NCBI GenBank assembly: GCA_036519295.1
Contig: DATDLN010000046.1
Coordinates: forward strand, 606-64,605
Direction of reading: 5' to 3'
Length of the DNA: 64,000 nt
From: Thermoleophilaceae bacterium
GTDB taxonomy: Bacteria > Actinomycetota > Thermoleophilia > Solirubrobacterales > Thermoleophilaceae
In this document: in pieces, positions 3,351 to 19,656 of the stretch
Layout: every line of letters begins with the position of its first letter
How positions within the stretch are numbered: position 1 is the stretch's first letter
The notes under the pieces: model-generated
Seen by the model: the letters and a program-made list of their open reading frames with translations, nothing else
Told to the model about the DNA's origin: nothing
The model's database searches: none
Made by a program: the position numbers and the translations under genes

Positions 3351-3574
3351 TCGCGCCGTCTCTCCGTGGTCGCCGGTGTGCCGGCCACGCTGGGGGGGTG
3401 GTTGCTTGGATGGTGGGCGCCGGGCCCCGCTGCCGGCCACCATGGTGCATAAGTGTCGCTGTAGGACACTGGGACACGAGAGCTCGCCGGCGACGCCCCA
3501 GGAGACACCCTCCTCACCCAGCCCAAGCGCGGCCGGCCCTGCCAACCACCCGGCGAGAGCCGGCGAGCGCCCAC

Positions 3575-4339
3575 CTACGCCACCCCCAGCTCGCGCATGA
3601 CCTCAACCACCGCCGGCGCGGCCTCGGGCCCCCGGCCCAGGATCTCCGCCTGCTTCCCCTGCCCAGGTGGCACCACGAGCCGCACCATCTCGAGCCGCGG
3701 CTCGGGCCGCTCGGGCGTGCTCGTCTCGACGGGCTTCTGCCGGGCCCGGAGCTTCGCCGGCACCGACGGGTAGCGGGGCAGGTTGATGCCCTCCAGCACC
3801 GTCACGACGGCGGGCAGGGGCACGAGGTAGATGTCGCGGCCCCCGGTGACCTCCTGCTCGCAGCGGGCGCGACCGTCCTCGATCGACAGGCCCTTCAGCC
3901 CGGTCACGACCGGACGGCCGAGCGCGTGGGCGACTCGGATTCCCACCTGGAAGTTGCCGGAGTCGGCCGACTCGTTGCCGAAGATGATCAGGTCGAAGTC
4001 TCCGCCCGCGGCTCGCTCCGCCTCGATCGTGGCGAGGATCGCGCCGGCGGTGGCCTGCGGATCCCACTCCTCGCCGTCCGTGGCCAGCAGGATGCCCCGA
4101 TCGGCGCCCGCCGCCAGCGAGTCGCGCACCTGTTCCTCGGCCTCGGGCGGGCCGAGCGTCAGGACAGTGACCTCACCGCCGTGCTGCTCCACCAGCTGCA
4201 CTGCCTGCTCCACTCCGCACTCCTCGTGGGGGCTGATCGTGAAGCCGAGGTGGCGCGTCTCGAGCGCCCGCTCGTCGGCCGTCAGGACCATCCGCCCGCC
4301 GGTGAGGGGCACGCGCTTGACGCAGACGAGGATCCTCAT
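3575..4339 (-). CDS. etfB: electron transfer flavoprotein beta subunit
   Basis: C-terminal 254 aa of ORF 3575..5140 starting MRILVCVKRVPLTGGRMVLTADERALETRHLGFTISPHEECGVEQAV. The ATG at 4339 overlaps the TGA of the upstream dehydrogenase (ATGA). Confidence 0.9.
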   Translation of the reverse strand: MRILVCVKRVPLTGGRMVLTADERALETRHLGFTISPHEECGVEQAVQLVEQHGGEVTVLTLGPPEAEEQVRDSLAAGADRGILLATDGEEWDPQATAGAILATIEAERAAGGDFDLIIFGNESADSGNFQVGIRVAHALGRPVVTGLKGLSIEDGRARCEQEVTGGRDIYLVPLPAVVTVLEGINLPRYPSVPAKLRARQKPVETSTPERPEPRLEMVRLVVPPGQGKQAEILGRGPEAAPAVVEVMRELGVA

Positions 4340-6876
4340 GACCTGATTCTTGCGTTGTCGGGGTCGAAGAGAGGCGTGGAGTCGTTCGTCTCCACGGTCA
4401 CCGGGTAGCGCTCGCACATGTACTCCACCGCGAGCTGCTCGCCGACGTTCGCACGCTCGGGTGGCAGGTAGGAGAGCAGGATGTACTTGCCCACTGACGG
4501 GCCCGCCCCCGCGCTCGTGACGAACGAGCGCCTGCCCTCGCGGTCGGTGAGCGGGGCGCCCTCGCGGGTCACGATCGGCTCGCCGCCGAGCATGTAGCGC
4601 TTCTCGCCGTTCTTCGAGTTGTGGTCGTCGACGGTGAGCGTGCAGAGCACCGCCGCCGGCTCTTCCTCGCGCTGGCGCAAGTGCGCCTCCTTGCCGACGA
4701 AGTCCTGCTCCTTCACCTTTCCCCAGGCCATGCCGGCTTCGACCACGTCGTATTCGCCGTCGAGCTCGAAGCCGAACGCCCGGTAGCACTTCTCGAGCCG
4801 CCCGGTGGTGGCGTACACGCCGATCCCGGCCGGCAAGATCCCGTGCGGCCGGCCCGCCTCCCACACGATGTCCCACAGCTTGGCGCCCTGCTCGATCGGA
4901 ACGTACAGCTCCCAGCCCAGGTCGCCGACGTAGGAGATACGCGACGCCAGCGTGCGCAGCGAGTCGACCTCGATCGTCCGGCAGGAGGCGAAGGGGAAGC
5001 CCTCGTGCGACACGTCGTCGCTCGTGATGCTCGCGAGGACGTCGCGCGACCGCGGGCCCCACAGGCCGAGCGTGCACCAGCTCGAGGTGAGGTCGAAGAT
5101 CTGCGCGCTGCCGTCGTCCACCAGGTGGTCGGAGAACCATTTGAGGTCAGCCATCCCGTGCGCGCCGCCGGTGACGACGCGGAAGTGCTCGTCGCCCAGC
5201 CGCATGATCGTCAGGTCTGCGCGGAAGCCTCCGCCGGGCGTGAGGATCGGCGTGTACACGACCCGCCCGATCTTCACGTCCATCTGGCGGACGGCCACCC
5301 GCTGCACGCTCTCAACCGCGCCGGGGCCCACGATGTCGAAGACGCAGAACGCCGTGAGGTCGAACATCGCCACGCGGTCGCGCATCGCGAGGTGCTCGGC
5401 GTTGATGATCGGCGACCACCAGCGCGAGTCCCACTCCGCCTCGCGGCCCGCCACGCGGTCCGCGAACTCCTCCAGCAGCGGCTTGTTCGACTCGTACCAG
5501 TGCGGGCGCTCCCAGCCGGCGGCCTCGAAGAACATGGCATCGAGCTCGCGCTCCCGCTCGTAGAACGGCGACAGCCGCACGCGGCGGTTCGACGCCCACT
5601 GCTCGCCGGGATGGACGATGCCATAGGTCTTGTTGAACCCCTCCGCCGCGCGGGCTCTTACGTGCCCGACGCTCTTCTGGTGCTCGTAGAAGCGGGCGAT
5701 GTCGGAAGCCTGGAGGTCGATCTCGGACTGGCCGTTCACCATCCACTCCGCCACGCCCCGTCCGACTCCCGGCCCCTCCTTGACCCACACCGCGGCGGCA
5801 GACCAGAGACCCTTGACCTCGGGCGTCTCCCCGAGGATCGGGAGGGCATCCGGCGTGAGCGAGAGCAGGCCGTTGATCGCGTACTTGATCCCCACCGACT
5901 CGTCGCCGACGATCTCCGGCATCAGCTCCAGGGCGTGCTCCATCTGCTGAGTGAAGTCGTCCTGCGTGAACGGGAACTCGGTCGGCGAGAGCGCGGCCTC
6001 CTCGATCGACGGGATCTCCTCGGGATCGTGGAGGATTGGACGGTGGGCATACGAGCCCACCTCGAGGCCGGTGCCGTCCTGACGCTCGTACATGTTCGTG
6101 TCCATGTCGCGCACGATCGGGAAGTCGATTGAGCCCCCCGACTCGACGAACCGCGGCACAGGCCCGATGTCGATCATCTGGTGGACCGCCGGCGTGAGCG
6201 GGATCGAGGCGCCGGCCATGCGCGCCAGCCGCGGGCTCCAGACGCCGCAGCAGATCACGACCACCTCCGCCTCGATGTCGCCCCGGCTCGTGCGCACCCG
6301 CTTCACGCGACCGCCCTCGACGTCGATGTCGAGCACCTCGTTGTTCGCCGACACGGTGAGGGCGTCCGCCTCCTGGGCACGCTCGCGCATCAGCGTCCCG
6401 GCGCGGAGCGAATCGACGACGCCGACGCTCGGGGTGTAGAAGCCGCCGATGATCACGCTCTCGTCGATGAACGGGACCAGCTCCTTGACCTCGGCGGGAG
6501 TGAGGACCGAGACCGGCTCCACCCCCCACGCCGCCGCGGACACCATCCGGCGGCGAAGCTCCTCCATGCGCTCCTCGGTGCGCGCGACCTCGATCCCACC
6601 GCAAGTGGTGAGCACGCCGAGCTCGTCGTACTGGCGCAGGCTGTCGCGGGTCAGCGCCGTCATCTCGCGGGAGTGATCGACCGGGTAGATGAAGTTGGAC
6701 GCGTGTCCCGTCGAGCCGCCCGGGTTCGGCAGCGGACCCTTGTCGAGCAGCACGAGGTCGCGCCAGCCGAGCCGCGCGAGGTGGTGGACGATGCTGTTAC
6801 CGACTATGCCCGCGCCGATGACGACCGCGCGGGCCGCGGCCGGGGGGGAGCTGGGCGGTTCAGACGGGGTTGCCAA
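4336..6876 (-). CDS. dimethylglycine/sarcosine dehydrogenase family protein (FAD oxidoreductase fused to a GcvT-like folate-binding domain)
   Basis: 846 aa. N-terminal Rossmann motif VVIGAGIVGNSIVHHLARLG and GGSTGHASNF (flavinylation-type His). The C-terminal half is aminomethyltransferase-like (FDLTAFCVFDIVGPGA...YTPILTPGGGFRADLTIMRL). TTG start at 6876, with an in-frame TGA two codons upstream. Confidence 0.85.
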   Translation of the reverse strand: MATPSEPPSSPPAAARAVVIGAGIVGNSIVHHLARLGWRDLVLLDKGPLPNPGGSTGHASNFIYPVDHSREMTALTRDSLRQYDELGVLTTCGGIEVARTEERMEELRRRMVSAAAWGVEPVSVLTPAEVKELVPFIDESVIIGGFYTPSVGVVDSLRAGTLMRERAQEADALTVSANNEVLDIDVEGGRVKRVRTSRGDIEAEVVVICCGVWSPRLARMAGASIPLTPAVHQMIDIGPVPRFVESGGSIDFPIVRDMDTNMYERQDGTGLEVGSYAHRPILHDPEEIPSIEEAALSPTEFPFTQDDFTQQMEHALELMPEIVGDESVGIKYAINGLLSLTPDALPILGETPEVKGLWSAAAVWVKEGPGVGRGVAEWMVNGQSEIDLQASDIARFYEHQKSVGHVRARAAEGFNKTYGIVHPGEQWASNRRVRLSPFYERERELDAMFFEAAGWERPHWYESNKPLLEEFADRVAGREAEWDSRWWSPIINAEHLAMRDRVAMFDLTAFCVFDIVGPGAVESVQRVAVRQMDVKIGRVVYTPILTPGGGFRADLTIMRLGDEHFRVVTGGAHGMADLKWFSDHLVDDGSAQIFDLTSSWCTLGLWGPRSRDVLASITSDDVSHEGFPFASCRTIEVDSLRTLASRISYVGDLGWELYVPIEQGAKLWDIVWEAGRPHGILPAGIGVYATTGRLEKCYRAFGFELDGEYDVVEAGMAWGKVKEQDFVGKEAHLRQREEEPAAVLCTLTVDDHNSKNGEKRYMLGGEPIVTREGAPLTDREGRRSFVTSAGAGPSVGKYILLSYLPPERANVGEQLAVEYMCERYPVTVETNDSTPLFDPDNARIRS

Positions 6877-6903
6877 GAGTCAGCTGGTGGACGAGCGACA
6901 GCC

Positions 6904-6913
6904 TGATATATCA
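6904..6913. promoter_or_regulatory. perfect 10-bp AT-rich palindrome TGATATATCA, 28 nt upstream of the dehydrogenase start (site 1 of a recurring motif)
   Basis: Read directly. It sits in the divergent intergenic region 6877..7026 and is a striking AT island in GC-rich DNA. Related copies lie at 8228, 13781 and 14891. Confidence 0.55.
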
Positions 6914-7026
6914 AAACGCGGCCCGGCCTTCGAGTCGCGACGGACGGAATATCGACGGCAGGCATCCGTCTTGCACTGAGACACGAGACAGCGACAGCCG
7001 CCTGCCGGCGGCCGAAGGGGGCATCG

Positions 7027-7484
7027 ATGACGAGCGTGAGGCAGCGCCACCCACGTCGAGTGACGGTGATCGTGATGGCCGCGATACTCCTGGCGGGTGC
7101 GCTGGCGGTCCTGGCCGGCGTCGCCCCCGAGCGCGCGTCGGCCGCCCAGCGCCTAGCGTACGGAGGAAGCTCCGTGTGGACATGGAAGTGGGAGACCACC
7201 CCCTTCGCGTCTCCGGGCCCGGCGTCGTCGACATCTGGACCACCTGCCGGCCGAAGTCCAACAGCGTTACCTGGCACGAGCTGCTCGTCGGGACCAGCGA
7301 CGCCTCGTGGCTGAGGAGGATCAACGTGCGCTGCGACAGGCAAGGGCACTGGGTCCGCCGCGTCGGAATACCGCGTAACACCAGGCTCACGGTGCTCAGC
7401 CACCCCTTCAGAAGCGACGGCACGTTCTGCTACTGGCCTGAGCAATGCGCCACCGGGTGGACGAGCGTGTACACGAGCTCCTGA
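7027..7484 (+). pseudogene. small secreted Cys-containing protein with an apparent frameshift in a C5 run (pseudogene or assembly error)
   Basis: ORF 7027..7314 starts with a good signal peptide (MTSVRQRHPRRVTVIVMAAILLAGALAVLAGVAPERASA|AQ) after the SD GAAGGGGG. After about 7200 its GC3 collapses. The frame of ORF 6870..7484 then becomes coding-like (VDIWTTCRPKSNSVTWHELLVGTSDASWLRRINVRCDRQGHW...FCYWPEQCATGW). The switch coincides with CCCCC at 7199..7203. Confidence 0.45.
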
Positions 7485-7525
7485 GCGGGGACGGGGCAGC
7501 CTGCGGGAGCCGGGCAGCCCGCTCC

Positions 7526-8251
7526 TCAGCGCGTGAACGCCACCACGATCTCGCGTTGGAACGCGAGAATGTGCTCCTTCATAAGTTCACGGGCGCGGGG
7601 ACCGTCGCGGGTGAGCAACGCTTGAATCATGTCCCGTTGGTCGTGGACCGCGGTCCAAAGTCCGGGGACGCGGTCGAGCACGAGGTACCAGATCCGAAGA
7701 GACAGCGCAAAGTAGCGCTCGAGGGTGTCGACCAGATAGGGGTTGCCCGCCGCCTCCCAGGCGAGGCGGTGAACGCGCTCGTCGATGCGCATCAGCGCGG
7801 GGCTGTCCTGAGGATCGAGCTCCTCGAGCTCCGCCAACAGGGCCTCGGCCTCGCCGCTGCGCTCGTCGTCCATTCGCATCGCCGCGAGCTGGGCCGCGTG
7901 GCCCTCGAGCTCGGCGCGAACCTCGGTGATGTGGACGATGTCGGCCACGTTGACCTCGGTGACGTACGTGCCGCGGCGCGGCCGGACCTCGACCAGGTTC
8001 TCGAGCGCCAGCCGCTTGATCGCCTCGCGGAGTGGCGTGCGGCCGATCTCGAGCTCCCTCATCAGCCCGTCCTCGACCAGTGCGGACCCGGGTGGCAGGC
8101 GCAGAGTCACGATGCGGTCCCGCAGCTCGAAATACGCCCGTTCGGCGATCAGGCGGACCGCGGGCCGGCCCACGAAACTGCTCTCGGTCGGCGACGGCGA
8201 GGCGGGTTGACCGCCAACGTCCCAACGTGATATTTCAGACTCGTGCGCCAA
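7526..8251 (-). CDS. GntR-family transcriptional regulator with FadR-type C-terminal (FCD) domain
   Basis: wHTH LMRELEIGRTPLREAIKRLALENLVEVRPRRGTYV followed by a helical FCD-like domain. The first ~26 codons have low GC3, so GTG 8173 is a plausible true start. Confidence 0.85.
   Translation of the reverse strand: MAHESEISRWDVGGQPASPSPTESSFVGRPAVRLIAERAYFELRDRIVTLRLPPGSALVEDGLMRELEIGRTPLREAIKRLALENLVEVRPRRGTYVTEVNVADIVHITEVRAELEGHAAQLAAMRMDDERSGEAEALLAELEELDPQDSPALMRIDERVHRLAWEAAGNPYLVDTLERYFALSLRIWYLVLDRVPGLWTAVHDQRDMIQALLTRDGPRARELMKEHILAFQREIVVAFTR
8228..8238. promoter_or_regulatory. TGATATTTCAG, one-mismatch copy of the recurring motif (site 2)
   Basis: Read directly. It lies in the gntR/metF divergent region if gntR starts at 8173. 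A half-site ATATCA also occurs at 8334..8339, 15 nt before the metF GTG. Confidence 0.4.
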
Positions 8252-8272
8252 GAAACATCACCCTTGCCGACT

Positions 8273-8296
8273 CAACGCGGGAAAGAACGCGCGTTG
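8273..8296. promoter_or_regulatory. inverted repeat CAACGCG-N10-CGCGTTG in the gntR/metF intergenic region
   Basis: Perfect 7-bp arms at 8273..8279 and 8290..8296. Candidate operator. Confidence 0.3.
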
Positions 8297-8354
8297 GCAT
8301 GATAAGGGGCGCAATCGCAGGCGCGAGCCTCGCATATCACCGAGCAGGGCGGAT

Positions 8355-9251
8355 GTGAGCTTGATCGAGTCGCCCGAGCGTTCCAGCACCCACGCGAGCG
8401 AAGCCGAGTCCCGACGGGCGTTGATCGAGGCGTTGAAGCGCCCCCGCTACGAGATCCTGCCGCTCGACGGGATCGCAGACGAGGTCGAGGCGCAGGTGCC
8501 GCGCGGGGTCAAGCTCACGGTCACGGCATCTCCCCGGCGGGGTCTAGACGCGACCCTCGAGCTCGCGGAGCGCCTGAGCGGCGCCGGCTATGCGGTCGCG
8601 CCGCACGTGTCCGCGCGCCTCGTCCCCGACGCCGCTCACCTGAAGGACCTGGTGCGGCGCCTTCGCTCCGCGGGGATCGACGACATGTTCGTGATCGCCG
8701 GCGACACGAGCGAGCCGGCGGGCGAGTTCGAAGGGGCTGCCGCCCTCCTCAAGGCGATGGGCGAGCTGCGCGAACGCTTCTCCGAGGTCGGTATCTCGGG
8801 CTACCCCGAGAGCCATCACGTGATCAGCGACGAGAACACCATCGAGGCCATGTTCGAGAAGGAGCCGATGGCCACGTACATCGTCAGCCAGATCTGCTTC
8901 GAGGCCGACGTGATCGAGACCTGGGTTCGCCGTGTGCGCGCCCGAGGCACCTTCCTCCCCATCTGGATCGGAGTGCCGGGAACCGTCGATAACCGCAGGC
9001 TGCTGCAGATCTCCCGGAAGATCGGGCTGGGCGAGTCGGCGCGCTTCCTCAGGGCGCACGGCGGCTGGGTGCGGCGCCTCGCCCTCCCGCGCCGCTACAC
9101 GCCCACCACCCTGGTCAGGGACATCGCGCCCTCGATCGCCGACCCTGGCGCACGGATAGCGGGCTTTCACATCTATACCTTCAACGAACTCGAGCGCACC
9201 GAGGAATGGCGGCGGCAGCTCGTCGAGCAGCTGATCGCACAGCACGAGTAG
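8355..9251 (+). CDS. metF: methylenetetrahydrofolate reductase family protein
   Basis: 298 aa, GTG start. MTHFR-like features read in the translation: RYEILPLDG...VKLTVTASPRRGLDATLELAERLSGAGYAVAPHVSARL...IDDMFVIAGD...ISGYPESH...QICFE. Confidence 0.75.
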   Translation: MSLIESPERSSTHASEAESRRALIEALKRPRYEILPLDGIADEVEAQVPRGVKLTVTASPRRGLDATLELAERLSGAGYAVAPHVSARLVPDAAHLKDLVRRLRSAGIDDMFVIAGDTSEPAGEFEGAAALLKAMGELRERFSEVGISGYPESHHVISDENTIEAMFEKEPMATYIVSQICFEADVIETWVRRVRARGTFLPIWIGVPGTVDNRRLLQISRKIGLGESARFLRAHGGWVRRLALPRRYTPTTLVRDIAPSIADPGARIAGFHIYTFNELERTEEWRRQLVEQLIAQHE

Positions 9252-9276
9252 GTCGACAGAAGGAGGAGCACCCACC

Positions 9277-10473
9277 GTGGCAGAGATCAACGAGCACCCC
9301 GGCATCCTGCTCTACACGCGTATCCGGAAGTCGCCGTACTTCTACGCGTCGCGGCGCCACGGCGTGCAGCTCTACAGCGTCTACAACCACACCTACCACC
9401 CGCGGCACTACGGCGATCCCGTCGAGGAGTACTGGCAGCTGCTGAACGGGGTCACGCTCTGGGACGTGGGCGTCGAGCGCCAGATCGAGATCAGCGGGCC
9501 CGACGCGTTCGATTTCACCAACCTGCTCGTCGCGCGCGACCTCAACAAGTGCGAGGTCGAGCAGTGCAAGTACGTGTTCAACTGCCTGCCCGACGGGGGG
9601 ATCATCAACGACCCGGTGCTGCTGCGCGTCGAGGAGAACCGCTTCTGGCTCTCGCTCGCCGACAGCGACGTGGAGCTCTGGGCCAGGGGCGTGGCCTACA
9701 ACTCCGATTACGACGTCGAGGTCAAGGAGATCGACGTCGGACCGGTGCAGGTGCAGGGGCCGAAGTCGAAGGACGTGATGGTCGACCTCTTCGGCGAGAG
9801 GATTCTCGAGATCCCCTACTACTTCCTCCGTCCCTTCGAGCTCAACGGCATGAAGGTGCTCGTCTCGCGCACCGGCTACACCGCCGAGCTGGGCTACGAG
9901 ATCTACCTCTACGACGCCAGCAAACACGGCGTGAAGCTCTGGGAGGCCGTGCTGGAGGCGGGCAAGCCGCACGACCTGGCCGTGATCGGCCCGTGCCACA
10001 TCCGGCGAATCGAGGGCGGCATCCTCGCCCTTGGGTGCGACATGTGGTACGACACGAATCCCTACGAGGTCGGCATGGGCTACGACTGGATGGTCGACCT
10101 GGAGCAGGGCTCCGACTTCATCGGCAAGGAGGCGCTCCACCGCATCAAGGAGGAGGGGCCGAAGCGCAAGCTGGTGGGAGTCGAGATCGGCGGCGACCGG
10201 CTCGGCGCCTACAACGACGGCACGATGATCGACGTCTTCCCCGTGCATATGAACGGCGGGCGAGTCGGCGAGGTGACCTCGGCCTGCCACTCGCCGCGGC
10301 TCGAGAAGAACATCGGCTACGCGATGGTCCCGATCGAGCACAGCGAGCTCGGCACGGAGTTCGAGGTGGAGCGGCCCGACGGAACGGCGTCGGCGGTGGT
10401 CGTCGAGAAGCCGTTCATCGATCCGAAGAAGGAGACGCCGAAGCAGCAGCTCGCCACGGGCCAGGGGACCTGA
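9277..10473 (+). CDS. stand-alone GcvT-family aminomethyltransferase-fold protein, DmdA-like THF-dependent demethylase candidate
   Basis: 398 aa, preceded by the strong SD AAGGAGGAG. Sequence reads YNHTYHPRHYGDPVEEYWQLLNGVTLWDVGVERQIEISGPDAFDF...GGIINDPVLLRVEENRFWLSLADSD...GPVQVQGPKSKDV...SRTGYTAELGYEIY...IRRIEGGILALG...FIGKEAL. It has no FAD domain. Confidence 0.75.
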   Translation: MAEINEHPGILLYTRIRKSPYFYASRRHGVQLYSVYNHTYHPRHYGDPVEEYWQLLNGVTLWDVGVERQIEISGPDAFDFTNLLVARDLNKCEVEQCKYVFNCLPDGGIINDPVLLRVEENRFWLSLADSDVELWARGVAYNSDYDVEVKEIDVGPVQVQGPKSKDVMVDLFGERILEIPYYFLRPFELNGMKVLVSRTGYTAELGYEIYLYDASKHGVKLWEAVLEAGKPHDLAVIGPCHIRRIEGGILALGCDMWYDTNPYEVGMGYDWMVDLEQGSDFIGKEALHRIKEEGPKRKLVGVEIGGDRLGAYNDGTMIDVFPVHMNGGRVGEVTSACHSPRLEKNIGYAMVPIEHSELGTEFEVERPDGTASAVVVEKPFIDPKKETPKQQLATGQGT

Positions 10474-11282
10474 GCACCGCGGTCCACACCCTCTCCGGCC
10501 CGCTCGACGACGAGCGGCGCGGAGAGCTTGTCTTCCGAGGCGACCTGCTCGTCTTCAAGCGGGTGCCGCCGCTGCTCGAGGCGGCGCGCTTGGTGGATGC
10601 TCTGATCGGAGCGGCGCCCGGCCCGCCGGACTTGGCCGCAATCGACGAGCTTCAGCGAGACGTTCGGACAGACCCCCGGATGAAGGAGCTCTTCCGCGCG
10701 GCGCTCGAGCACCTGGGCGTCGACCCGGCCCGGAGCTACTGGGACTCCATCTACCTGCGCGTCGTGCCGCCGATCGAGCGGGGCGCCGAGCGACAGATTG
10801 GGAGGATCGGGTTCCATCGCGACACGTGGTCGTCCAACGTGCTCCAGCAGACGAACTGGTGGACGACGATCCGTCCGCTCGCCGCCGACCGCACGATCGC
10901 CTTCTATCCCGACTATTGGTCCCGGCCGATCGCCAACACGAGCGCGGATTGGGATCTCGACGAGATCCGCGCCCTCCGCAGGAGCGGGGAGCGCGACGAG
11001 GACATAGCGATCGTGCCGGAGCCCAGCGAGCCGGTGGACACCTCGTCGGAGCTTCGGATCGTGATCGAGCCGGGCGATCTCCTCTGCTTCTCCGGGGCGC
11101 ACCTGCACGCGAGCGTGCCCAATGTGTCGGAAAGAACGCGGGTCAGCGTCGAACTTCGAACGGTGAACCTTGACGACCTGGCGCAGGGTCGCGGCGCCCC
11201 AGACATCGACGGACGGGCCCCGAAGGTTCCGCTGGGGTGGTTTCGGTCGATGGAGGACGGGTCGCAGCTGCGGCCGCCTTAG
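10470..11282 (+). CDS. Fe(II)/2-oxoglutarate-dependent oxygenase-like protein (PhyH-like)
   Basis: C-terminal part of ORF 9549..11282. HxD...H...RxS arrangement: GFHRDTW ... GAHLHASVPNVSERTRVSVELR. High GC3 begins right at the stop of the upstream gene. There is no ATG/GTG/TTG in frame before GTG 10563; CTG 10470 overlaps TGA 10471. Confidence 0.6.
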   Translation: MSTAVHTLSGPLDDERRGELVFRGDLLVFKRVPPLLEAARLVDALIGAAPGPPDLAAIDELQRDVRTDPRMKELFRAALEHLGVDPARSYWDSIYLRVVPPIERGAERQIGRIGFHRDTWSSNVLQQTNWWTTIRPLAADRTIAFYPDYWSRPIANTSADWDLDEIRALRRSGERDEDIAIVPEPSEPVDTSSELRIVIEPGDLLCFSGAHLHASVPNVSERTRVSVELRTVNLDDLAQGRGAPDIDGRAPKVPLGWFRSMEDGSQLRPP

Positions 11283-11926
11283 AGCCGCGCGTCGCGCTCG
11301 TGCACGAGACGCCAGGCGCGCACTCGCCGGCCGGCGCCCGTAAGCGCCGCCACGCTGCCGCGACCGTGGGCTTCGAGGTGGGTGGCCAGGGCGAGGAACG
11401 CCTGGGCCGTCGTGAGGGCGTCGCCCTCGGCGTCGTGCGGGCGATGCGCCGGGAGCCCGAGCGAGGCGGCGACGTCGCCGAGCGAGCGCGAGCCGGAGTC
11501 GCCCTCGCCGCGCTCGATGCCCAGCAGGCGCCAAAGCAGTGCGGTATCGACCGCCGGGCGAGGCGGCAGGCGCTCGAGCGGCCCGCGGTGGGCGCGTAGG
11601 AACGCGCGTTCCACCCCCACCACGTGGGCCACCAGGGTACGGTGGCGCATCGCGCCCATCAGCGGCATGAGCGCCTCCGGGGGCGGCGGCGCTGAAGCCA
11701 GGTCCTGGGCGCGCAGGCCGTGGATCTGGATCGAGCGCGGGGACAGCGAAGCCGCCGGCCGCACCAGCCCGCTCACGGCGCCCCCGGCGAGGATGCGCCC
11801 CTCTTCCACGGGGATCGCCGCGTAGGAGATCACCTCGTCGCGCCGGGGGTCGAGTCCGGTTGTCTCGACGTCGACCACGACGAAGCGGGCCGCCCGCCAG
11901 GAGGTCCGCCAGGGGAGGGGCCTCAC
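11279..11926 (-). CDS. DEDDh 3'-5' exonuclease (DnaQ/PolIII epsilon-like)
   Basis: 215 aa. Exo I FVVVDVETTGLDP, Exo II-like LVAHVVGVERAFL, Exo III HRPHDAEGDALTTAQAF. Confidence 0.8.
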   Translation of the reverse strand: MRPLPWRTSWRAARFVVVDVETTGLDPRRDEVISYAAIPVEEGRILAGGAVSGLVRPAASLSPRSIQIHGLRAQDLASAPPPPEALMPLMGAMRHRTLVAHVVGVERAFLRAHRGPLERLPPRPAVDTALLWRLLGIERGEGDSGSRSLGDVAASLGLPAHRPHDAEGDALTTAQAFLALATHLEAHGRGSVAALTGAGRRVRAWRLVHERDARL

Positions 11927-13761
11927 CGTCCGGACAGCCCGAGCTTGAGCGCGACTCCCCGCTGTACCTTCGCTACGGCGCGAAACGCCTCCTTGAGGGA
12001 GGTGCGGGTGAGCGGGGCGAGGCGCTCCGGGTCGATCAAGTCGTCGGGCGGCAGTCCCTCCCGCAGCCGTCCCACGTGGTGCTCCATACGCAGCGCGCAG
12101 ACGAGCTCGAAGGCGTCACGCAGGACCGCCGCGTCGTCGGCCTCGAGCGTCCCTTCCGCTTCGGCGGCCTCCAGTCGCGCCCGGGTAGACGCCGCGGTCA
12201 CCCCGGATGCCAGCCCGGCCCAGCGCGCCAGCGACTCGATCGGGATCAGCCCGCCGCGCTTGATGTCGAGCCTTCCCTTGCGCTCGCCGCTCGACTCGAG
12301 CACGAAGTGGCGGAAGAAGCCGGTGGGTGGACGCTCGGCAAGCGCGGCGATGGCAAGCCGGCGCAGCGTGCGGTCGCGCCGTGGAATCCCGGCGAAGGCG
12401 GCGGCGAGCCGCTCGGCCGCCGTGGTGGCCCCCCATACCGCGGCGCTCTCCACGACGACCCCCAGAAGCATCAGGCCGCGACCCCGGTCGGGATCCTCGA
12501 GCCACTCCTCGGCCGCCCGCTCCCATTCGATGATCGACCGCGCGAATAGCGGGTTCGATGCCACCGCCCCGCGGCCGTCGGGAACCAGTCCGCTGGCCGA
12601 CAGCCCCGCCAGCACCCGCCTGGCCAGCGCGAGCATGCTTTCCCGCGGGCCCGGATCGTCGCCGCCGTCCCAGGCGAGCGCGCAGTCGACGTCCGAGCCA
12701 GGGAAGGGCTCACGGCGGCCGAAGCTGCCGAGCGCAAGCCAGGAGTAGGGCACGGGGGGCGGGCCAAGCTCCTCGTGCGCAATCTCGATCAGGCGGCGGG
12801 TGACGGTGTCGTGGATGCTCGCGATCATTCGGCTGATCACCGGCGCGGGGACGTCCCCGTCGTACAGCGCAATCACCGTCTGCGGGAGCTCGGTCGCCGC
12901 CTCGGCCACGCCGGCGGCATCCTTGCTGCGTGCGATCAGCGATCGGAGGTGGAAGGGGGCGCGCCGCTCGCTCGCCATCAGGTCCACGTCGTCGATCACC
13001 CCGATCAGCTGACCGCGCGCCTCGAGCACCAGCAGGTGCCGAACGCCGTGGTCGAGCATTTCGACCAGCGCCTCCGAGGCCGTGGTGTCGGCCGTCACCG
13101 TCCGCGCCGGTGCGGTCATGATCTCCGCGAGCGGCGTGTCGGGTGCGGCGCCCGCGGCGACGACCCCGGTGCGGATGTCGTGGTCGGTCACGATGCCGTG
13201 CCCGTCGCCGAGGTCCGTGACGACGCACGAGCGCCCCTTCTCGACCATTCGCTGTGCCGCCTCCTGTACGGGCGTGGCGGGTGGGCAGACGAGCGCCGGC
13301 GCGCGGATGAGCTCGCGCACCACACGGCCCGTGGCGGATGGCGGGGGTTCAGGCTCGGGGCTCGCGAGCAGCCGCCCCTCGCGCGTCAGCGACGCCGCGA
13401 GGAAACGCACCGCCGCCGGTCGCTCGAGCACCGGGCGAATCGCGCGCTCCGGAATGCGGTAGACGAGCGTGTCCTCGGCGGCGCGCGCGACGAATCCCAG
13501 CGGGCTCTCCGCGAGCAGGGAGGCGAACCCGAACATCTCGCCCTCGCCGACGAGGTCGAGCAGCCGGCCGCCGCTCAAGAGCTCCACCGACCCGCGCCTC
13601 ACGACGTAGGCGAACTCGGCCGTCGCCTCGGCGCTCTCGAGGATCGGCGCGCGGGCGGCATGGAACTCGATCTCGGCAGCGGCGGCGACGCTCCGGAGCG
13701 CCTCCTCGTCGAGCGTGTCGAAGGGAGGGTGGCGCTGAAGAAACTCGGCGATGTCGTACAT
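11923..13761 (-). CDS. cNMP-binding + tandem CBS + DUF294-type nucleotidyltransferase signalling protein
   Basis: 612 aa. N-terminal cyclic-nucleotide-binding-like segment (GEGEMFGFASLL), a CBS pair (VTDLGDGHGIVTDHDI... / LLVLEARGQLIGVIDDVDL), and an NTase motif (LALGSFGRREPFPGSDVDCAL). It overlaps the exonuclease start by 4 nt. Confidence 0.75.
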   Translation of the reverse strand: MYDIAEFLQRHPPFDTLDEEALRSVAAAAEIEFHAARAPILESAEATAEFAYVVRRGSVELLSGGRLLDLVGEGEMFGFASLLAESPLGFVARAAEDTLVYRIPERAIRPVLERPAAVRFLAASLTREGRLLASPEPEPPPSATGRVVRELIRAPALVCPPATPVQEAAQRMVEKGRSCVVTDLGDGHGIVTDHDIRTGVVAAGAAPDTPLAEIMTAPARTVTADTTASEALVEMLDHGVRHLLVLEARGQLIGVIDDVDLMASERRAPFHLRSLIARSKDAAGVAEAATELPQTVIALYDGDVPAPVISRMIASIHDTVTRRLIEIAHEELGPPPVPYSWLALGSFGRREPFPGSDVDCALAWDGGDDPGPRESMLALARRVLAGLSASGLVPDGRGAVASNPLFARSIIEWERAAEEWLEDPDRGRGLMLLGVVVESAAVWGATTAAERLAAAFAGIPRRDRTLRRLAIAALAERPPTGFFRHFVLESSGERKGRLDIKRGGLIPIESLARWAGLASGVTAASTRARLEAAEAEGTLEADDAAVLRDAFELVCALRMEHHVGRLREGLPPDDLIDPERLAPLTRTSLKEAFRAVAKVQRGVALKLGLSGR

Positions 13762-13771
13762 AAGCCCCGGG

Positions 13772-13793
13772 CCGGATCGCCAGATATATCAGT
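13772..13793. promoter_or_regulatory. CCGGATCGCCAGATATATCAGT, site 3 of the recurring motif (core GATATATC palindrome)
   Basis: Read directly. It is near-identical (one extra C) to the 21-mer at 14883..14903 and abuts the -35 box of the promoter below. Confidence 0.55.
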
Positions 13794-13794
13794 C

Positions 13795-13823
13795 TTGACA
13801 TGCCTGCCCGAGATTGAGATATT
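13795..13823 (+). promoter_or_regulatory. sigma-70-like promoter TTGACA-N17-GATATT with TG extension
   Basis: TTGACA at 13795..13800, a 17-nt spacer, TG at 13815..13816, and GATATT at 13818..13823. It lies upstream of the substrate-binding protein gene. Confidence 0.5.
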
Positions 13824-13866
13824 GCGGCACCGGGCTCCGGACGGCAACGTCCCCGCACCGAAGCCC

Positions 13867-14874
13867 TTGACGAGGAGGAGGGGAGCGACGCTGCGCAAGC
13901 TGAGAGGAGCGAGAGCATTTGCCGGCCTCGCGGTCATCGGCACGGCTCTCGTGCTCTTCGGCGCCGGCTGCGGGGACGACGAGCCGGCCGCCGGCGAGAA
14001 ACCCGGCGAGGGGGAGACGATCAGGATCGCGGTCAACCCGTGGACCGGGTCGGCGGTCAACGCGAACGTGGCGAAGATCCTCCTCGAGCGGGAGCTCGGC
14101 TACAAGGTGGAGCTCGTGAAGATCGACGAGAACAGCCAGTTCCCGGCCATCGCATCGGACGAGCTGGACGCCTCGCTCGAGGTCTGGCCCTCGGGACACG
14201 CGGCCGACATCAACCGCTATATCGAGGGCCGACGCGGCGGCCCGCTCCGGGACGGCGGAATCGTCAACGACGGCAACCTGGGGATCATCGGGAACATCGG
14301 CTGGTGGGTTCCCAACTACCTGCTGAAGGACCATCCCGAGCTCGCCCGCTGGCAGGGACTCAAGGGCAACGAGGACTTGGTGAACGGCGAGTTCCTCGCC
14401 GGGGACCCGACGTTCGTGTCCTACGACAGCGAGATCATCAAGAACCTCGGCCTCGACCTGAAGATCGTCAACACCGGCTCCGAGCGAGCCCTGCTGCAGG
14501 CCATCGACAAGGCCTACAAGGCGAAGCAGCCCTTCCTCACCTACTTCTACACGCCACATTGGGCGCACCGGAAGTACGACCTCACGGAGGTTCAGCTCCC
14601 GGCCTACGACGAGCACTGCGAGGAAGCCGCGCGCGATCACGACGGCAAGGGCTACGACTGCGACTACGCCAACGACGTCCTCTTCAAGATGGGGTGGCTG
14701 GGGCTGCAGGACAAGGCGCCTGAGGCGGCCAGTTTTCTCGAGAAGTTCAACTACTCGACCGACGATCAGCAGGAGATCGCCTTCGAGGCGGACGCTCAAG
14801 GCATGCCAATCCGACAGGCCGCGGAGCAGTGGATCGATCAGAACCCGGACGTCTGGCGGAAGTGGCTCTCGTGA
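13867..14874 (+). CDS. glycine betaine/choline-type ABC substrate-binding lipoprotein (OpuAC/ProX-like), orphan
   Basis: C-terminal part of ORF 12775..14874. Lipoprotein signal ...AFAGLAVIGTALVLFGAGC, and Trp-rich binding-site segments NPWTGS, LEVWPSG, GWWVPNY. The start is either TTG 13867 (no SD) or CTG 13891, which follows the strong SD GGAGGAGGGGAG. Confidence 0.8.
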   Translation: MTRRRGATLRKLRGARAFAGLAVIGTALVLFGAGCGDDEPAAGEKPGEGETIRIAVNPWTGSAVNANVAKILLERELGYKVELVKIDENSQFPAIASDELDASLEVWPSGHAADINRYIEGRRGGPLRDGGIVNDGNLGIIGNIGWWVPNYLLKDHPELARWQGLKGNEDLVNGEFLAGDPTFVSYDSEIIKNLGLDLKIVNTGSERALLQAIDKAYKAKQPFLTYFYTPHWAHRKYDLTEVQLPAYDEHCEEAARDHDGKGYDCDYANDVLFKMGWLGLQDKAPEAASFLEKFNYSTDDQQEIAFEADAQGMPIRQAAEQWIDQNPDVWRKWLS

Positions 14875-14882
14875 CCGAGTGT

Positions 14883-14903
14883 CCGGATCGCAGATATATC
14901 AGT
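14883..14903. promoter_or_regulatory. CCGGATCGCAGATATATCAGT, site 4 of the recurring motif
   Basis: Read directly. It ends 20 nt before the GTG 14923 of the permease, just upstream of the SD GGGGAGG. Confidence 0.55.
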
Positions 14904-14922
14904 TGCAGAGGGGAGGTCGCCC

Positions 14923-16503
14923 GTGGCGACGGAAGTTTCTGACGCCCACTCGGACGAGCTCGCCGAGTTCGGCTACAAGCAGGAGCTCGACCGCAGCATC
15001 GGGAAGTTCGCCAGCTTCGCGGCCGGCATCAGCTACATCTCGATCCTGACGGGCGTCTTCCAGCTCTTCTTCTTCGGATTCGCGATCGGCGGGCCGGCCT
15101 ACTGGTGGACGTGGCCGATGGTCTTCGCCGGCCAGGTGATGGTGGCCCTCTGCTTCGCGGAGCTGGCCGCCAACTTCCCTGTGGCCGGGTCGATCTACAA
15201 CTGGGCCAAGCGCCTGGGCACCGCGACGATCGCGTGGCTGGGCGGCTGGATGATGCTCACCGCCTCGGTGGTCACGCTCTCCGCAGTGGCCCTCGCCTAC
15301 CAGTACACGCTGCCCCAGATCTCCTCGGCGTTCCAGTTCGTCGGCGACGGGACCGGCAAATACGACTACGCCGGCAACGCCGTCCTTCTCGGGACGGTGC
15401 TGATCCTGTTCACGACGATCATCAACGCCCTGGGCGTGAAGCTGATGGCACGGATCAACAGCGCCGGCGTGTTCATCGAGCTGGTCGCAGCGGTGCTGCT
15501 GATCGTCCTGCTCGCGGCCAACATCACGCGCGGCCCCGATGTGCTGTTCGATACGCAGGGCACCGGTGAAGGCCACAGCTGGGGCTATCTCGGCGCCTTC
15601 TTGACCGCGGCGCTCGCCTCCGCCTACGTGATGTACGGCTTCGATACCGCCAGCTCGCTCGGCGAGGAGACCGTAGACCCGCGCCGCACTGCGCCGACCG
15701 CGATCATGCGCGCGGTCATCGCCTCCTTCCTGCTCGGCGGCGCGATCCTGCTGTTCGCCATCCTCTCGGTGAGCAACATCAACTCCCCCGAGATCGCGAA
15801 GGGCGGGCTTCAGTTCGTGGTCCTCGACGTGCTCGGCGACACCATGGGCAAGGTCTTCCTGGTCTGCGTGGCCATCGCGGTAACGGTCTGCTGCCTGGCC
15901 GTGCACACGGCCACGATCCGGATGATGTTCGCCATGGCGCGCGACAACAACCTGCCGGCGGGAGAGCGGCTCGCGAAGGTCCACCCGAAGACCAAGACGC
16001 CGATCATTCCCGCCGTCCTGATCGGCTTCCTCGGGGTCCTGATCCTGGTTGTGAACATCAAGCAGCCGCAGATCTTCACCGTCATCACGAGCATCGGGAT
16101 CATCATGATCTACATCGCCTACCTGCTCGTGACGGTGCCGACGCTCTTCAGCCGGCTACGCGGCGAGTGGCCCCCGAAGGACGCGAAGGAGAAGGGCTAC
16201 TTCTCGCTCGGGAAGCTCGGCCTTCCGATCAACATCCTCGCGGTCGTGTGGGGAGCGGGCATGGCGATCAACCTCGCCTGGCCACGCAAGGACGTCTACA
16301 ACGCGACCGAGCCCTTCCACTGGTACCTCCAGTACGGCGCGATCCTGTTCATCGGCGTCGTCTTCTTCGGCGGACTGGCGTACTACTGGTTCGTACAGCG
16401 CCACAAGACGGGCGTTCTGGCCTCGCACGCGATAGAGGCCGGCGCGCCGGCCGGGGCGGGCCCGGCGGTGCGGCCGGCTCCGGCCTCATCCTCCCCGGAG
16501 TAG
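14923..16503 (+). CDS. APC-superfamily amino acid/choline-type permease
   Basis: 526 aa, about 12 hydrophobic helices, with the N-terminal signature FASFAAGISYISILTG...AELAANFPVAGSIYNW. Confidence 0.85.
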   Translation: MATEVSDAHSDELAEFGYKQELDRSIGKFASFAAGISYISILTGVFQLFFFGFAIGGPAYWWTWPMVFAGQVMVALCFAELAANFPVAGSIYNWAKRLGTATIAWLGGWMMLTASVVTLSAVALAYQYTLPQISSAFQFVGDGTGKYDYAGNAVLLGTVLILFTTIINALGVKLMARINSAGVFIELVAAVLLIVLLAANITRGPDVLFDTQGTGEGHSWGYLGAFLTAALASAYVMYGFDTASSLGEETVDPRRTAPTAIMRAVIASFLLGGAILLFAILSVSNINSPEIAKGGLQFVVLDVLGDTMGKVFLVCVAIAVTVCCLAVHTATIRMMFAMARDNNLPAGERLAKVHPKTKTPIIPAVLIGFLGVLILVVNIKQPQIFTVITSIGIIMIYIAYLLVTVPTLFSRLRGEWPPKDAKEKGYFSLGKLGLPINILAVVWGAGMAINLAWPRKDVYNATEPFHWYLQYGAILFIGVVFFGGLAYYWFVQRHKTGVLASHAIEAGAPAGAGPAVRPAPASSSPE

Positions 16504-16510
16504 GGCCGGC

Positions 16511-17980
16511 GTGGCCACCCGCATGTTCATCGACGGCGAGTGGTGCGACGCCGCGAGCGGCGCCACCGTCGAGGCCACGAGCCCGGTGACGGGGGAGTCG
16601 CTCGGCCCGGTGGCGGACGGGGACCGCGAGGACGCACGCCGCGCGATCGCGGCGGCGGGCGCCGCCTTCAACGCCTGGGCGGCGCGGACCGGGTTCGAGC
16701 GCGCCGCGCTGCTCCACCGCGCCGCGGATGCCTGCGAGCGCCGCCGCGACGAGCTCGCCCGCGTCTGCACGCTCGACCAGGGCAAGCCGCTCAAGGCCGA
16801 GGCCGAGGTGGAGGTCGGCGAGCTGATCGAGTTCTTCCGGATGGCGGCCGAGGACGCCAAGCGCCTCGAGGGGCGAATTCCCGAGAGTGCGGCGCCCGGA
16901 AGGCGGGTGCTCCTGCTGCGGCGGCCTGTCGGGGTGCTCGGGCTCATCACCCCCTGGAACTGGCCGTACACGATGCCGGCAGAGGTGCTGGCGCCGGCGC
17001 TGGGGTGCGGCTGCACCGTCGTATGGACGCCCGCGCCCTCGACGGCGGTGTGCTCGGGCGTCCTCGCGGAATGCGTCGCCGAGGCGGACTTCCCGCCCGG
17101 CGTGTTCAACTTCGTGCTCGGACCCGGCCCGGAGGTCGGGGACGAGCTGGCCGTGAACCCCGACACTCAGGCGGTCGCCTTCACCGGTTCGACGCAGACC
17201 GGGATGATCGTCTCGCGCCAGGCCGCCGGCAAGATCCAGCTGCTCGAGATGGGCGGTAACGGGCCCTTCGTGGTGATGGACGACGCGGACCTCGATGCCG
17301 CGGCAGAGGCGGCGCAGGTCGGCTGCTTCCTGGGCGCCGGTCAGAGCTGCTCGGCCGCCGAGCGCCTGCTCGTGCACGAAGCCGTGCGCCAGGAGTTCGT
17401 GGCCCGCCTGGCGGCGCAGGTCGAGCGCGACGTCCGGCTCGGCGATCCGCTGGAGGAGGCCACCACGCTCGGCCCGCTCAACAACGAGCCGGGCGCCGCC
17501 AAGATGGACGAGCACGTCGCCGACGCGGTGGAGCGCGGCGCCGAGGTCGTTGCGGGCGGCGCGCGCGCCGACGGCTTTCCCACCCGGCTGTATTGGCCCG
17601 CGACCGTGCTCGACCGGGTGCCCCCGGACTCGATCGCCGTCACCCAGGAGACCTTCGGCCCGATCGCGCCGATCGTGTCGATCGGGTCCCTCGAGGAGGC
17701 CATCGAGCAGACGAACTCCCAGTCGTTCGGTCTCATGGCGGCGATCTTCACGGGCGACGTGGGGGCCGGCCTGCGCTACGCGGATTCGGTCCACATGGGG
17801 CTCGTGAACATCAACGAGACGACCAACTACTGGGAGGCCCACCTCCCGTGGGGCGGCCGCGGCCGCTCCGAGAGCGGCATCGGGCGTGTCGGCGGCCGCT
17901 ATCCGATGGAGACTCTCACCGAGCTTCAGACGGTGCTCATCCGATCAGAACCCCCGCTACCCCCCGGGAGGGCTTCATGA
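16511..17980 (+). CDS. NAD(P)-dependent aldehyde dehydrogenase, betaine-aldehyde dehydrogenase candidate by context
   Basis: 489 aa. Catalytic motifs LEMGGNGP and [11 protein letters not shown]. Its stop overlaps the betA start (ATGA). Confidence 0.85.
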
Positions 17981-19656
17981 CTTCGCACTACGACTTCGTC
18001 ATCGTCGGCGGCGGCTCGGCGGGCTGCGCGCTGGCCAACCGGCTGTCGGCGGATCCGGCCAACCGGGTGCTCGTGCTCGAGGCCGGGCGGCCGGACTGGT
18101 CGTGGGACGTTTTCATCCACATGCCGGCGGCGCTCGCGTTCCCGATCGGGAACCGCTTCTACGACTGGAAGTACGAGTCCGAGCCGGAGCCCTACATGGG
18201 TGGCCGGCGGGTGTACCACGCGCGCGGGAAGGTCCTCGGTGGATCGAGCAGCGTCAACGGCATGATCTTCCAGCGCGGCAACCCGATGGACTACGAGCGC
18301 TGGGCCTCGGGCGACGGCATGGAGACCTGGGACTACGCCCACTGCCTGCCGTACTTCAAGCGCATGGAGAACTGCCTGGCGGCGCGGCCGGACGATCCGT
18401 TCCGCGGCCACGACGGTCCGCTGGTGCTCGAGCGGGGCCCCGCCCGCGGTCCCCTCTTCGACGCCTTCTTCGCGGCGGTGCAGGAGGCCGGCTACGACCT
18501 GACGGAAGACGTGAACGGCTACAAGCAAGAGGGGTTCGCCCCCTTCGACCGCAACGTGCACGACGGAAAGCGGCTTTCGGCGGCCCGCGCGTACCTGCAT
18601 CCGGTCATGGATCGGCCGAACCTGAAGGTCGAGACCTTCGCGTTCACGACCAAGGTGCTGTTCGAGGGGAACCGTGCGGTCGGCGTCGAGTACACGCGCT
18701 ACGGGCGTCGCAAGGAGGAGGCGCGGGCCGGCGAGATCGTTCTCTGCGGCGGGGCGATCAACTCGCCTCAGCTGCTCCAGCTCTCCGGCGTGGGGGCCGC
18801 GGGCGAGCTGCGCCCACTCGGAATCGACGTCGTCCACGACCTGCCCGGTGTGGGCGAGAACCTCCAGGATCACCTCGAGGTCTACGTCCAGCACAGCGCG
18901 ACCCAGCCGGTCTCGATGGCGCCCTACTTCCTGATGAAGAACCGGCCCAAGGTCGGCCTCGAGTGGCTCCTGCGCAAGTCCGGCCCGGGCGCCACGAACC
19001 ACTTCGAGGCGGGCGGCTTCGTGCGCAGCAACGAGGACGTCAAGTGGCCCAATCTCATGTACCACTTCCTCCCGATCGCGGTGCGATACGACGGGACGCT
19101 GCCGCCGGGCGGAGGCGGCCACGGCTATCAGGTGCACGTTGGCCCGATGTACTCGGACGTCCGCGGCACCTGCAAGATCGTCAGCGCCGACCCGGGCCAG
19201 CATCCCGCGCTGCTCTTCAACTACCTCTCGACCGAGAGCGACCGGCGCGAGTGGATCGAGGCGATCCGGGTGACGCGCAAGATCCTGTCCCAGCCCGCCT
19301 GGGCGCACCTCGACGGCGGCGAGATCTCGCCCGGCGCCGAGGTCGACAGCGACGACCAGATCCTCGATTGGGTGAGGAAGGATGCCGAGACGGCGCTGCA
19401 TCCCTCGTGCACCTGCCGGATGGGAACCGACGACCTGGCCGTGACCGATCCATCGTCCCTACGCGTGCACGGCACCGAGGGCCTGCGCGTGGTGGACGCC
19501 GCGGTCTTCCCCTACGTCACCAACGGGAACATCTACGCGCCGGTCATGATGGTCGCGGAGAAGGCCGCGGACGTGATCCTCGGGAACACCCCGCTGGCGG
19601 CCGAGCCGGTCGCGTACTACCGGCACGGGGAGGAGGCGGCAGCGCCGGCCGCGTAG
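17977..19656 (+). CDS. betA: choline dehydrogenase (GMC oxidoreductase)
   Basis: 559 aa from [37 protein letters not shown]. Also [18 protein letters not shown] and the C-terminal GMC signature HPSCTCRMG...[11 protein letters not shown]. Confidence 0.9.

Follow-up and report, generated by a model that had tools for sequence, protein, structure and literature searches.

A 12-bp palindrome predicted to be the operator of a FadR-subfamily GntR regulator of choline and betaine genes in a Thermoleophilaceae bacterium

The choline/betaine island and its palindromic sites

The DNA analysed here, called the window below, is a stretch of 64,000 nucleotides (nt) from the Thermoleophilaceae bacterium assembly GCA_036519295.1 (contig DATDLN010000046.1, positions 606 to 64,605 of the forward strand). 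A preliminary description, made from the letters of the window, had pointed to an AT-rich palindrome that recurs in front of four transcription units of a choline/betaine island, and had proposed that it is a shared operator with the adjacent GntR protein as the candidate regulator. The follow-up analysis supports that proposal through the rarity of the element, its conservation, its co-occurrence with regulator homologues and a co-variation with the wing of the regulator. As relatives show, the full element is the perfect 12-bp palindrome CTGATATATCAG, and we consider it, with good confidence, to be the operator of a FadR-subfamily regulator (GntR winged helix-turn-helix plus FCD domain) encoded at 7526-8173, which would control the uptake and breakdown of choline and betaine.

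The genes of the island, in window coordinates, are:

415-~2380, minus strand, Fe-S/CCG membrane oxidoreductase (etfD), last gene of the target operon 415-6876
2382-3545, minus strand, etfA
3575-~4330, minus strand, etfB
4336-6876, minus strand, DAO-FAO_M-GCV_T dehydrogenase of the dimethylglycine/sarcosine dehydrogenase type (DMGDH-like)
7526-8173 (longest open reading frame, ORF, to 8251), minus strand, GntR+FCD regulator
8355-9251, plus strand, MTHFR-like protein, target operon 8355-10473
9277-10473, plus strand, GcvT/DmdA-like aminomethyltransferase
11279-11926, minus strand, DEDDh exonuclease
11923-13761, minus strand, cNMP-CBS-DUF294 nucleotidyltransferase, in the divergent unit 11279-13761 that shares site 3
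13867-14874, plus strand, OpuAC-type betaine/choline-binding lipoprotein (OpuAC 145.7 bits), probable start TTG 13867
14923-16503, plus strand, APC-family permease, target operon 14923-19656
16511-17980, plus strand, aldehyde dehydrogenase (ALDH)
~17977-19656, plus strand, choline dehydrogenase BetA (TIGR01810, 808 bits vs cut-off 732)

The sites are:

Site 1, 10-mer TGATATATCA at 6904-6913, 12-mer CTGATATATCAA at 6903-6914, predicted operator of the DMGDH-like dehydrogenase-etfB-etfA-etfD operon (minus strand)
Site 2, TGATATTTCAG at 8228-8238, 12-mer GTGATATTTCAG at 8227-8238, predicted degenerate operator in the gntR/MTHFR-like divergent region
Site 3, CAGATATATCAG at 13781-13792, predicted operator abutting the -35 box of the OpuAC promoter
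Site 4, CAGATATATCAG at 14891-14902, predicted operator of the APC permease-ALDH-betA operon

Direct reading confirmed the four copies at the coordinates given for them in the preliminary description. The word GATATWTC occurs at four distinct places in the 64-kb window (6905, 8229, 13783 and 14893) against 0.28 expected, a count reached in 0 of 100 shuffles; the claim that the copies are not due to chance thus holds for the window, although the raw genome count, taken alone, is not extreme. Site 1 does lie upstream of the dehydrogenase operon; TTG 6876 on the minus strand, the sole possible start of the DAO/GCV_T dehydrogenase, is reached 26 nt after the 12-mer, or 27 nt when counted from the 10-mer. 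Site 2, correctly placed, needs correction as a copy of the motif: it is degenerate, with two mismatches to the consensus (the poorly conserved position 1 and a change of core A8 to T), and it lies inside the longest GntR ORF. Site 3 stands 19 nt upstream of ATG 13761 of the divergent DUF294 gene and is separated by 2 nt from the TTGACA-N17-GATATT promoter that it had been said to adjoin. The spacing of 20 nt between site 4 and GTG 14923 was also confirmed; a Shine-Dalgarno sequence, GGGGAGG, follows the site directly, and genome G001 has a similarly close spacing (27 nt).

Rarity of the palindrome in the host genome

In the host genome, a draft of 4.3 Mb with 70.5 % GC, GATATATC has only 11 copies, and only four 12-mers come within one mismatch of CTGATATATCAG. 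These are sites 1, 3 and 4 and a site on another contig, C194:40108-40119 (locus L057:7109), and all four precede quaternary-amine (choline/betaine) genes. The motif is thus rare, not common irrespective of gene function. The genome count of 4, compared with a mean of 0.75 for 180 palindromes of the same composition, is among the seven highest, but two others tie at 4; the raw count not being extreme, significance rests on placement and conservation. The C194 site, which reads CAGATATATCAG, precedes by about 70 nt an OpuC-type operon whose products are a CBS-domain ABC ATPase, two permeases and a binding protein of the OpuAC type, and it adds a fifth regulon site, outside the window, to the four of the preliminary description.

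A half-degenerate copy, CTGATATATCGC, is found at C194:40483-40494, at a distance of 375 bp from the C194 operator. A LacI-type regulator gene follows this copy after about 90 nt; the copy may serve as an auxiliary half-site or match by chance.

Conservation within the genus

Orthologues of the regulator (64-83 % identity) are present in 23 of 40 relatives, or 24 of 41 genomes with this one included. Most regulator-carrying genomes have 4-6 sites within one mismatch, compared with 0-1 for a reversed-pattern control, and the regulator-less genomes G009 and G013 have none in the same pattern search. About 53 of the 55 sites in 13 genomes of the genus lie directly upstream of choline or betaine genes; the exceptions are a core-mismatch word after a P450 gene and a site pair that appears to precede another BCCT gene. 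The targets comprise the DMGDH-etfBA-etfD operon, the GcvT-like (-BetA) operon, a stand-alone ALDH gene, the MTHFR-like gene (usually divergent from gntR), gntR itself, the APC permease-ALDH operon with its divergent DUF294-exonuclease pair, ProV-type or OpuC-type ABC transporters, BCCT transporters and a choline sulfatase/SBP5 divergon. The DMGDH orthologue is preceded by an orthologous site in more than 15 genomes. Conservation at orthologous loci, which the preliminary description had proposed to look for, is therefore present. A position weight matrix built from the sites within one mismatch is circular and was used only for flank information: beyond position 12 it holds none, and the flanking bases vary freely.

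The DUF294-exonuclease pair stands beside a site also in G001, G002, G006 and G014, and in G032 only DUF294 was detected; the pair appears, from this placement, to be a conserved regulon member.

An attempt to separate the regulator from the island by presence or absence within the genus failed, as the two always co-occur; only a comparison widened to the class and to other phyla resolved the matter.

Pairing of regulator and site in wider taxa

Thirty of 301 sampled Thermoleophilia genomes carry a regulator orthologue (42-87 % identity), almost always beside a DMGDH orthologue or betaine transporters. In most of them the palindrome, or a variant close to it, adjoins the gene, and this extends to orthologues of about 42 % identity. 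The exact 10-mer is present in 16 of the 30 genomes with the regulator and in 22 of the 271 without it (Fisher p = 7.6e-9); those 22 are mostly lower-GC genomes in which the control matches as well. A profile search of named genomes gave homologues of 39-74 % identity at 80 loci in three phyla, Actinomycetota, Chloroflexota and Dormibacterota, the taxa represented being Solirubrobacterales, Gaiellales, low-GC Actinomycetota, Streptomyces, Arthrobacter, Chloroflexota and Dormibacterota. At 45 of the 80 loci the 250 nt in front of the regulator gene hold a site within one mismatch; at 0 of 80 do they hold the control palindrome. The predicted regulator-operator pair is very probably widespread, and would govern the utilisation of choline, betaine, dimethylglycine and sarcosine.

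In Streptomyces rectiviolaceus JCM 9092 (L170:1-3124) the homologue is divergent from glyA (serine hydroxymethyltransferase) and soxB (sarcosine oxidase beta), and the region that separates it from them holds a perfect palindrome. There the palindrome is followed after 9 nt by TAAGGT, a layout similar to that of Thermoleophilia, CTGATATATCAG-N13-TAAGAT, in which the spacer is longer. Culturable Streptomyces (L166, L170, L173, L180) have a 43-45 % identical regulator together with perfect CTGATATATCAG.

Eleven Dormibacterota homologues, from metagenome-assembled genomes (L130, L134-L136, L138, L140, L141, L143, L145-L147), carry the wing sequence PHRG, not PRRG, and with it the operator CCGGTATATCGG or GCGGTATATCGC. 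A Chloroflexi locus that also has PHRG (L151) shows an intermediate operator, CCGATATATCAG. This single co-variation event points in the direction expected for a binding site of the regulator. The Dormibacterota variant dyad is often trailed by an extra CATATCGG half-site.

The GntR/FCD regulator

By domain content the protein encoded at 7526-8173 is a FadR-subfamily GntR protein. Its N-terminus matches the GntR winged helix-turn-helix (PF00392) with 62.6 bits against a cut-off of 27, and its C-terminus the all-helical FCD effector domain (PF07729) with 77.7 bits against a cut-off of 24.3. The FCD residues D131, H135 and H201 are invariant among the regulator orthologues. The recognition helix, GRTP(L/V/I)REA, is invariant and corresponds, in an alignment with Atu1419, to SRTPVREA; Arg45 of Atu1419 is the residue that reads the G of the 10-bp palindrome of that protein (PMC7797058). 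A 12-bp perfect dyad near the regulator gene is in keeping with the short AT-rich inverted repeat usual for FadR-subfamily operators. Within the island no other regulator gene is conserved, and no TetR or AraC regulator was found there; a TetR gene is seen in some relatives only.

The gntR gene of the preliminary description, 7526..8251, is real, but its start at TTG 8251 is doubtful. The GC content at third codon positions is 47 % for the first 15 codons after TTG 8251 and 85 % for the whole gene, and the same stretch also holds a TTGACC box and site 2, which together make GTG 8173 the more probable start; the longest ORF is probably over-extended. A start at GTG 8173 leaves a divergent region of 181 bp with site 2 about 55 nt upstream of gntR.

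Promoter anatomy

A consensus scan of 6700-15100 gave only two sigma-70-like promoters, and both touch a site:

8207-8234, plus strand, predicted promoter TTGACC(8207)-N16-GATATT(8234) of the MTHFR-like/GcvT-like operon, 9/12 matches, with the site 2 core as -10
13795-13823, plus strand, predicted promoter TTGACA(13795)-N17-GATATT(13823) of OpuAC here and of the APC permease operon in relatives, 10/12 matches

In the first of these the predicted -10 box is supplied by GATATT of site 2 (8229-8234). In relatives, TTGACC is conserved 13-15 nt before the palindrome in front of the MTHFR-like and GcvT-like genes, with the AT core at -10, and relatives with the same gntR/MTHFR-like layout read TTGACC-N14-TTGATATATCAG (L075) or CTGACATATCAC (G032). 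The second promoter belongs to a kind that we call type A, CAGATATATCA(C/G)-N2-TTGACA-N17-GATAnT, which precedes the permease in G006, G014 and G032; in these genomes, as at site 3, the dyad, centred at about -43, lies just upstream of the -35 box and 15-20 nt before the divergent DUF294 ATG.

The distance from palindrome to start codon varies among the promoters. In most of the genus only 1-2 nt separate the palindrome from the MTHFR-like ATG; the ABC ATPase ATG comes 9-10 nt after CTGATATATCAT, whose TATCAT is a TANNNT hexamer, and DMGDH starts 4-5 nt past the palindrome in G003, G026 and G031. Such spacings of 1-10 nt suggest leaderless transcripts or very short leaders. Other promoters have 20-50 nt and a Shine-Dalgarno sequence. 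The palindrome is predicted to double as the -10 region in several promoters.

A scan of 6500-15500 with Rfam covariance models gave no match at E <= 1, and an RNA element (riboswitch or leader) was rejected.

Proposed mechanism and alternative explanations

We propose that a dimer of the regulator would bind the 12-bp dyad, which lies on or beside the core promoters of five transcription points in this genome: the dehydrogenase-etfBA-etfD operon; the MTHFR-like/GcvT-like operon with the divergent gntR; OpuAC with the divergent DUF294-exonuclease pair; the APC permease-ALDH-betA operon; and the remote OpuC-type ABC operon on C194. As the majority of sites cover the -10/start region or precede the start codon by 1-35 nt, bound regulator would most likely occlude RNA polymerase and repress; overlap with -10/+1 likewise argues for repression. 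Release would come from a metabolite of the pathway, the candidates being betaine, dimethylglycine, sarcosine and one-carbon (C1) folate species, and the regulator would also control its own gene.

A bolder form of this proposal is possible, though we hold it only tentatively. The dyad might serve at once as operator and as -10/start region for promoters of either strand that give short leaders or none, with regulator and RNA polymerase competing for the same bases in a compact bidirectional switch; by analogy with Atu1419, the effector might be a C1-folate species and not betaine. If so, one ancient regulator across Actinomycetota, Chloroflexota and Dormibacterota would tune the demethylation of N-methyl-glycines (betaine, dimethylglycine and sarcosine) to the folate C1 pool.

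Several observations weigh against the assignment of the palindrome to the GntR regulator or against parts of it. The dyad centre of site 3 is at about -43 from the predicted start, a geometry compatible with activation, and the sign of regulation may thus differ between promoters. Regulator, island and motif come and go together in the genus, and co-occurrence there therefore cannot single out the regulator as the binder. The co-variation of wing and operator is essentially one lineage event, so phylogenetic confounding is possible. Finally, CTGATATATCAG misses both NyGTNxACNy and TKGT/ACMA with a GT-AC distance of 2-3 (PMC4494728): its G3 and C10 are 6 nt apart (G-N6-C), with GA...TC in place of the GT/AC boxes. 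Exceptions to the GntR operator consensus exist, for example BioR (TTATMKATAA) (PMC4494728), so that the misfit weakens the description as a typical FadR-type site and leaves membership of the subfamily possible.

The lack of canonical GT/AC boxes (PMC4494728), along with the inseparability of regulator and island in the genus, might instead mean that the palindrome is the operator of a transcription factor encoded elsewhere, the GntR protein being a mere regulon member or a binder of another site. We judge this unlikely, given that the palindrome tracks the regulator homologues into Streptomyces, Chloroflexota and low-GC Actinomycetota despite different neighbours, lies a fixed short distance upstream of the TAAG(A/G)T -10 box of the regulator gene, and is altered where the regulator wing is altered; no second regulator is conserved near the sites. 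Slightly less probable still is that the element is mainly a core-promoter signal, a -10-like and possibly bidirectional AT box with short or no leaders and no dedicated repressor. The preliminary description had offered a shared -10-like element as its alternative, and in part this stands: TTGACC lies 13-15 nt upstream of the AT core in the MTHFR-like/GcvT-like promoters, the degenerate site 2 supplies a hexamer of the sigma-70 -10 kind (A2/T6, 16-18 nt after the -35 box) in TTGACC-N16-GATATT, and several starts (MTHFR-like, ABC ATPase, and DMGDH in G003, G026 and G031) fall 1-10 nt past the palindrome. As the sole role it fails. The perfect palindrome has no TANNNT hexamer in any register (GATATA, ATATAT and TATATC all lack the A at position 2 with T at position 6), the start-codon distance of 1 to about 50 nt leaves no fixed register, and a generic promoter box is not expected to be confined to one pathway; on these grounds a plain -10 element was rejected. 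Nor would it explain the non-promoter outer bases CTG and CAG (C1/T2/G3 and C10/A11/G12), the strict dyad symmetry or the type-A permease elements upstream of a separate TTGACA-N17-GATAnT pair, and no alternative sigma factor gene was found in the island. That the copies are chance AT-rich words, or remnants of small repeats or mobile elements with no regulatory role, is highly improbable. Such a reading could draw on the 21/22-nt repeat shared by sites 3 and 4, which resembles a local duplication, and on the unexceptional genome count; however, dozens of genomes in three phyla retain the element at orthologous promoters while its flanks vary freely, and the 21-mer has no further copies in the genome. 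The comparative data effectively refute it.

Relation to known regulators

Atu1419 of Agrobacterium fabrum, an FCD-type GntR repressor (PDB 6Z74 and related entries; PMC7797058), has the same fold and domain architecture and is among the closest solved homologues (E = 1e-13). Its palindrome, ATGTATACAT, is likewise perfect and AT-rich, has 10 bp and overlaps -10 boxes; as here, several copies lie in one catabolic island, one of them at the regulator's own promoter and a degenerate one in or beside an ORF. The effector proposed for Atu1419, N5,N10-methylene-tetrahydrofolate (PMC7797058), is a metabolite also made by the enzymes regulated here, and for the present regulator it would be, by analogy, a lead and not a result. 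The two differ in operator (G-N4-C for Atu1419, G-N6-C here) and pathway (hydroxycinnamic acid degradation for Atu1419), their identity is only about 25-30 %, and a tetrameric state and DNA looping are described for Atu1419.

FadR, PdhR, LldR, GlcC, DgoR and UxuR share with the regulator the winged helix-turn-helix and all-helical effector domain and, as predicted here, a dimer acting on an AT-rich palindrome (PMC4494728). In such regulons the site is usually in the divergent region beside the regulator gene, the targets are catabolic, the effector is usually a pathway metabolite and extra half-sites lie near some sites (PMC4494728); the position of the site and the catabolic targets recur here, as do extra half-sites, at L148, L162 and L169, and the effector proposed here is likewise a pathway metabolite. 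The subfamily consensus TKGT-N2-3-ACMA is the feature that is not matched, and the main text of PMC4494728 has no betaine, choline or sarcosine group (0 occurrences). The departure from the GT/AC rule of GntR sites makes the present operator a useful case for recognition by FCD regulators.

BetI (TetR family, bet regulon) and GbdR/SouR (AraC family, Pseudomonas) control choline uptake and oxidation and the catabolism of betaine, dimethylglycine and sarcosine. The kinds of genes controlled are similar to those here; the protein families and the operators are unrelated. A regulator with a TetR_N domain beside bet genes, as for BetI, is not found, the sole regulator of the island being GntR+FCD. 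BusR of Lactococcus and Streptococcus has a C-terminal domain of the RCK_C/TrkA_C type, in contrast to the FCD domain, single 12-bp dyad and catabolic regulon seen here. What the two have in common is a GntR-family DNA-binding domain and control of betaine-related genes, in BusR those of a betaine transporter; BusR itself is described as responding to cyclic di-AMP and reading bipartite DNA motifs through a molecular-ruler architecture (PMC8517857).

Literature searches yielded no account of a GntR/FCD protein that regulates betaine, dimethylglycine or sarcosine genes, and nothing relevant for TGATATATCA. The Thermoleophilia/Solirubrobacterales are abundant soil Actinomycetota and largely uncultured. 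To our knowledge no regulon has been described for them, and none turned up in these searches. The regulator is thus undescribed, but its mechanism is not of a new kind. The analysis supplies a predicted regulator, operator and target set for this uncultured group, and the operator could serve as an annotation tag for choline, betaine, dimethylglycine and sarcosine genes, one that reaches genes of unknown role such as the DUF294-exonuclease pair, the GcvT/DmdA-like demethylase and the orphan OpuAC. The occurrence of the pair beside glyA-soxB in Streptomyces makes the prediction amenable to bench work in culturable strains.

The direct repeat around sites 3 and 4

The preliminary description had also noted a near-identical 21/22-mer around the last two copies, and this repeat is real:

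13772-13793, plus strand, left copy of the 22/21-nt direct repeat CCGGATCG(C)CAGATATATCAGT, holding site 3
14883-14903, plus strand, right copy, holding site 4

The two copies bracket the promoter and the OpuAC gene. In relatives the APC permease comes directly after the type-A promoter; here the OpuAC gene intervenes, and the arrangement points to a recent insertion or duplication of OpuAC and its promoter. The 8-9 nt 5' extension of the repeat is not conserved in relatives, which argues that the extended identity is a recent local duplication and not a longer functional site.

Other features of the island and the genome

The best model for the GcvT-family protein of 9277-10473 is the dimethylsulfoniopropionate demethylase DmdA, with 341.6 bits, below the cut-off of 410; by this similarity the protein is a candidate tetrahydrofolate-dependent demethylase of the pathway. 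The ORF downstream of its gene, at about 10470-11282, has no Pfam or NCBIfam match. Between site 1 and gntR, at 7027-7484, a small secreted-protein gene appears to be split over two frames, with ATG 7027 and a signal peptide in one frame and a second frame running to 7484.

Elsewhere in the genome, C68:26607 (ATGATATTTCAG) was considered as an extra site and rejected, being part of another repeated motif, GTAGCAGATGAT, beside a MarR-like gene. That motif, GTAGCAGATGAT(A/T)TT, is repeated at C68:26500-26640 upstream of the MarR-like gene; although it contains GATATTTC, it has no relation to the betaine operator. A second AT-core palindrome, (T)CGATATATCG(A), has 4-5 copies in the genome (5 matches within one mismatch), with positions at C59:19988, C124:26596, C162:51301 and C197:18281, and may be the operator of another regulator.

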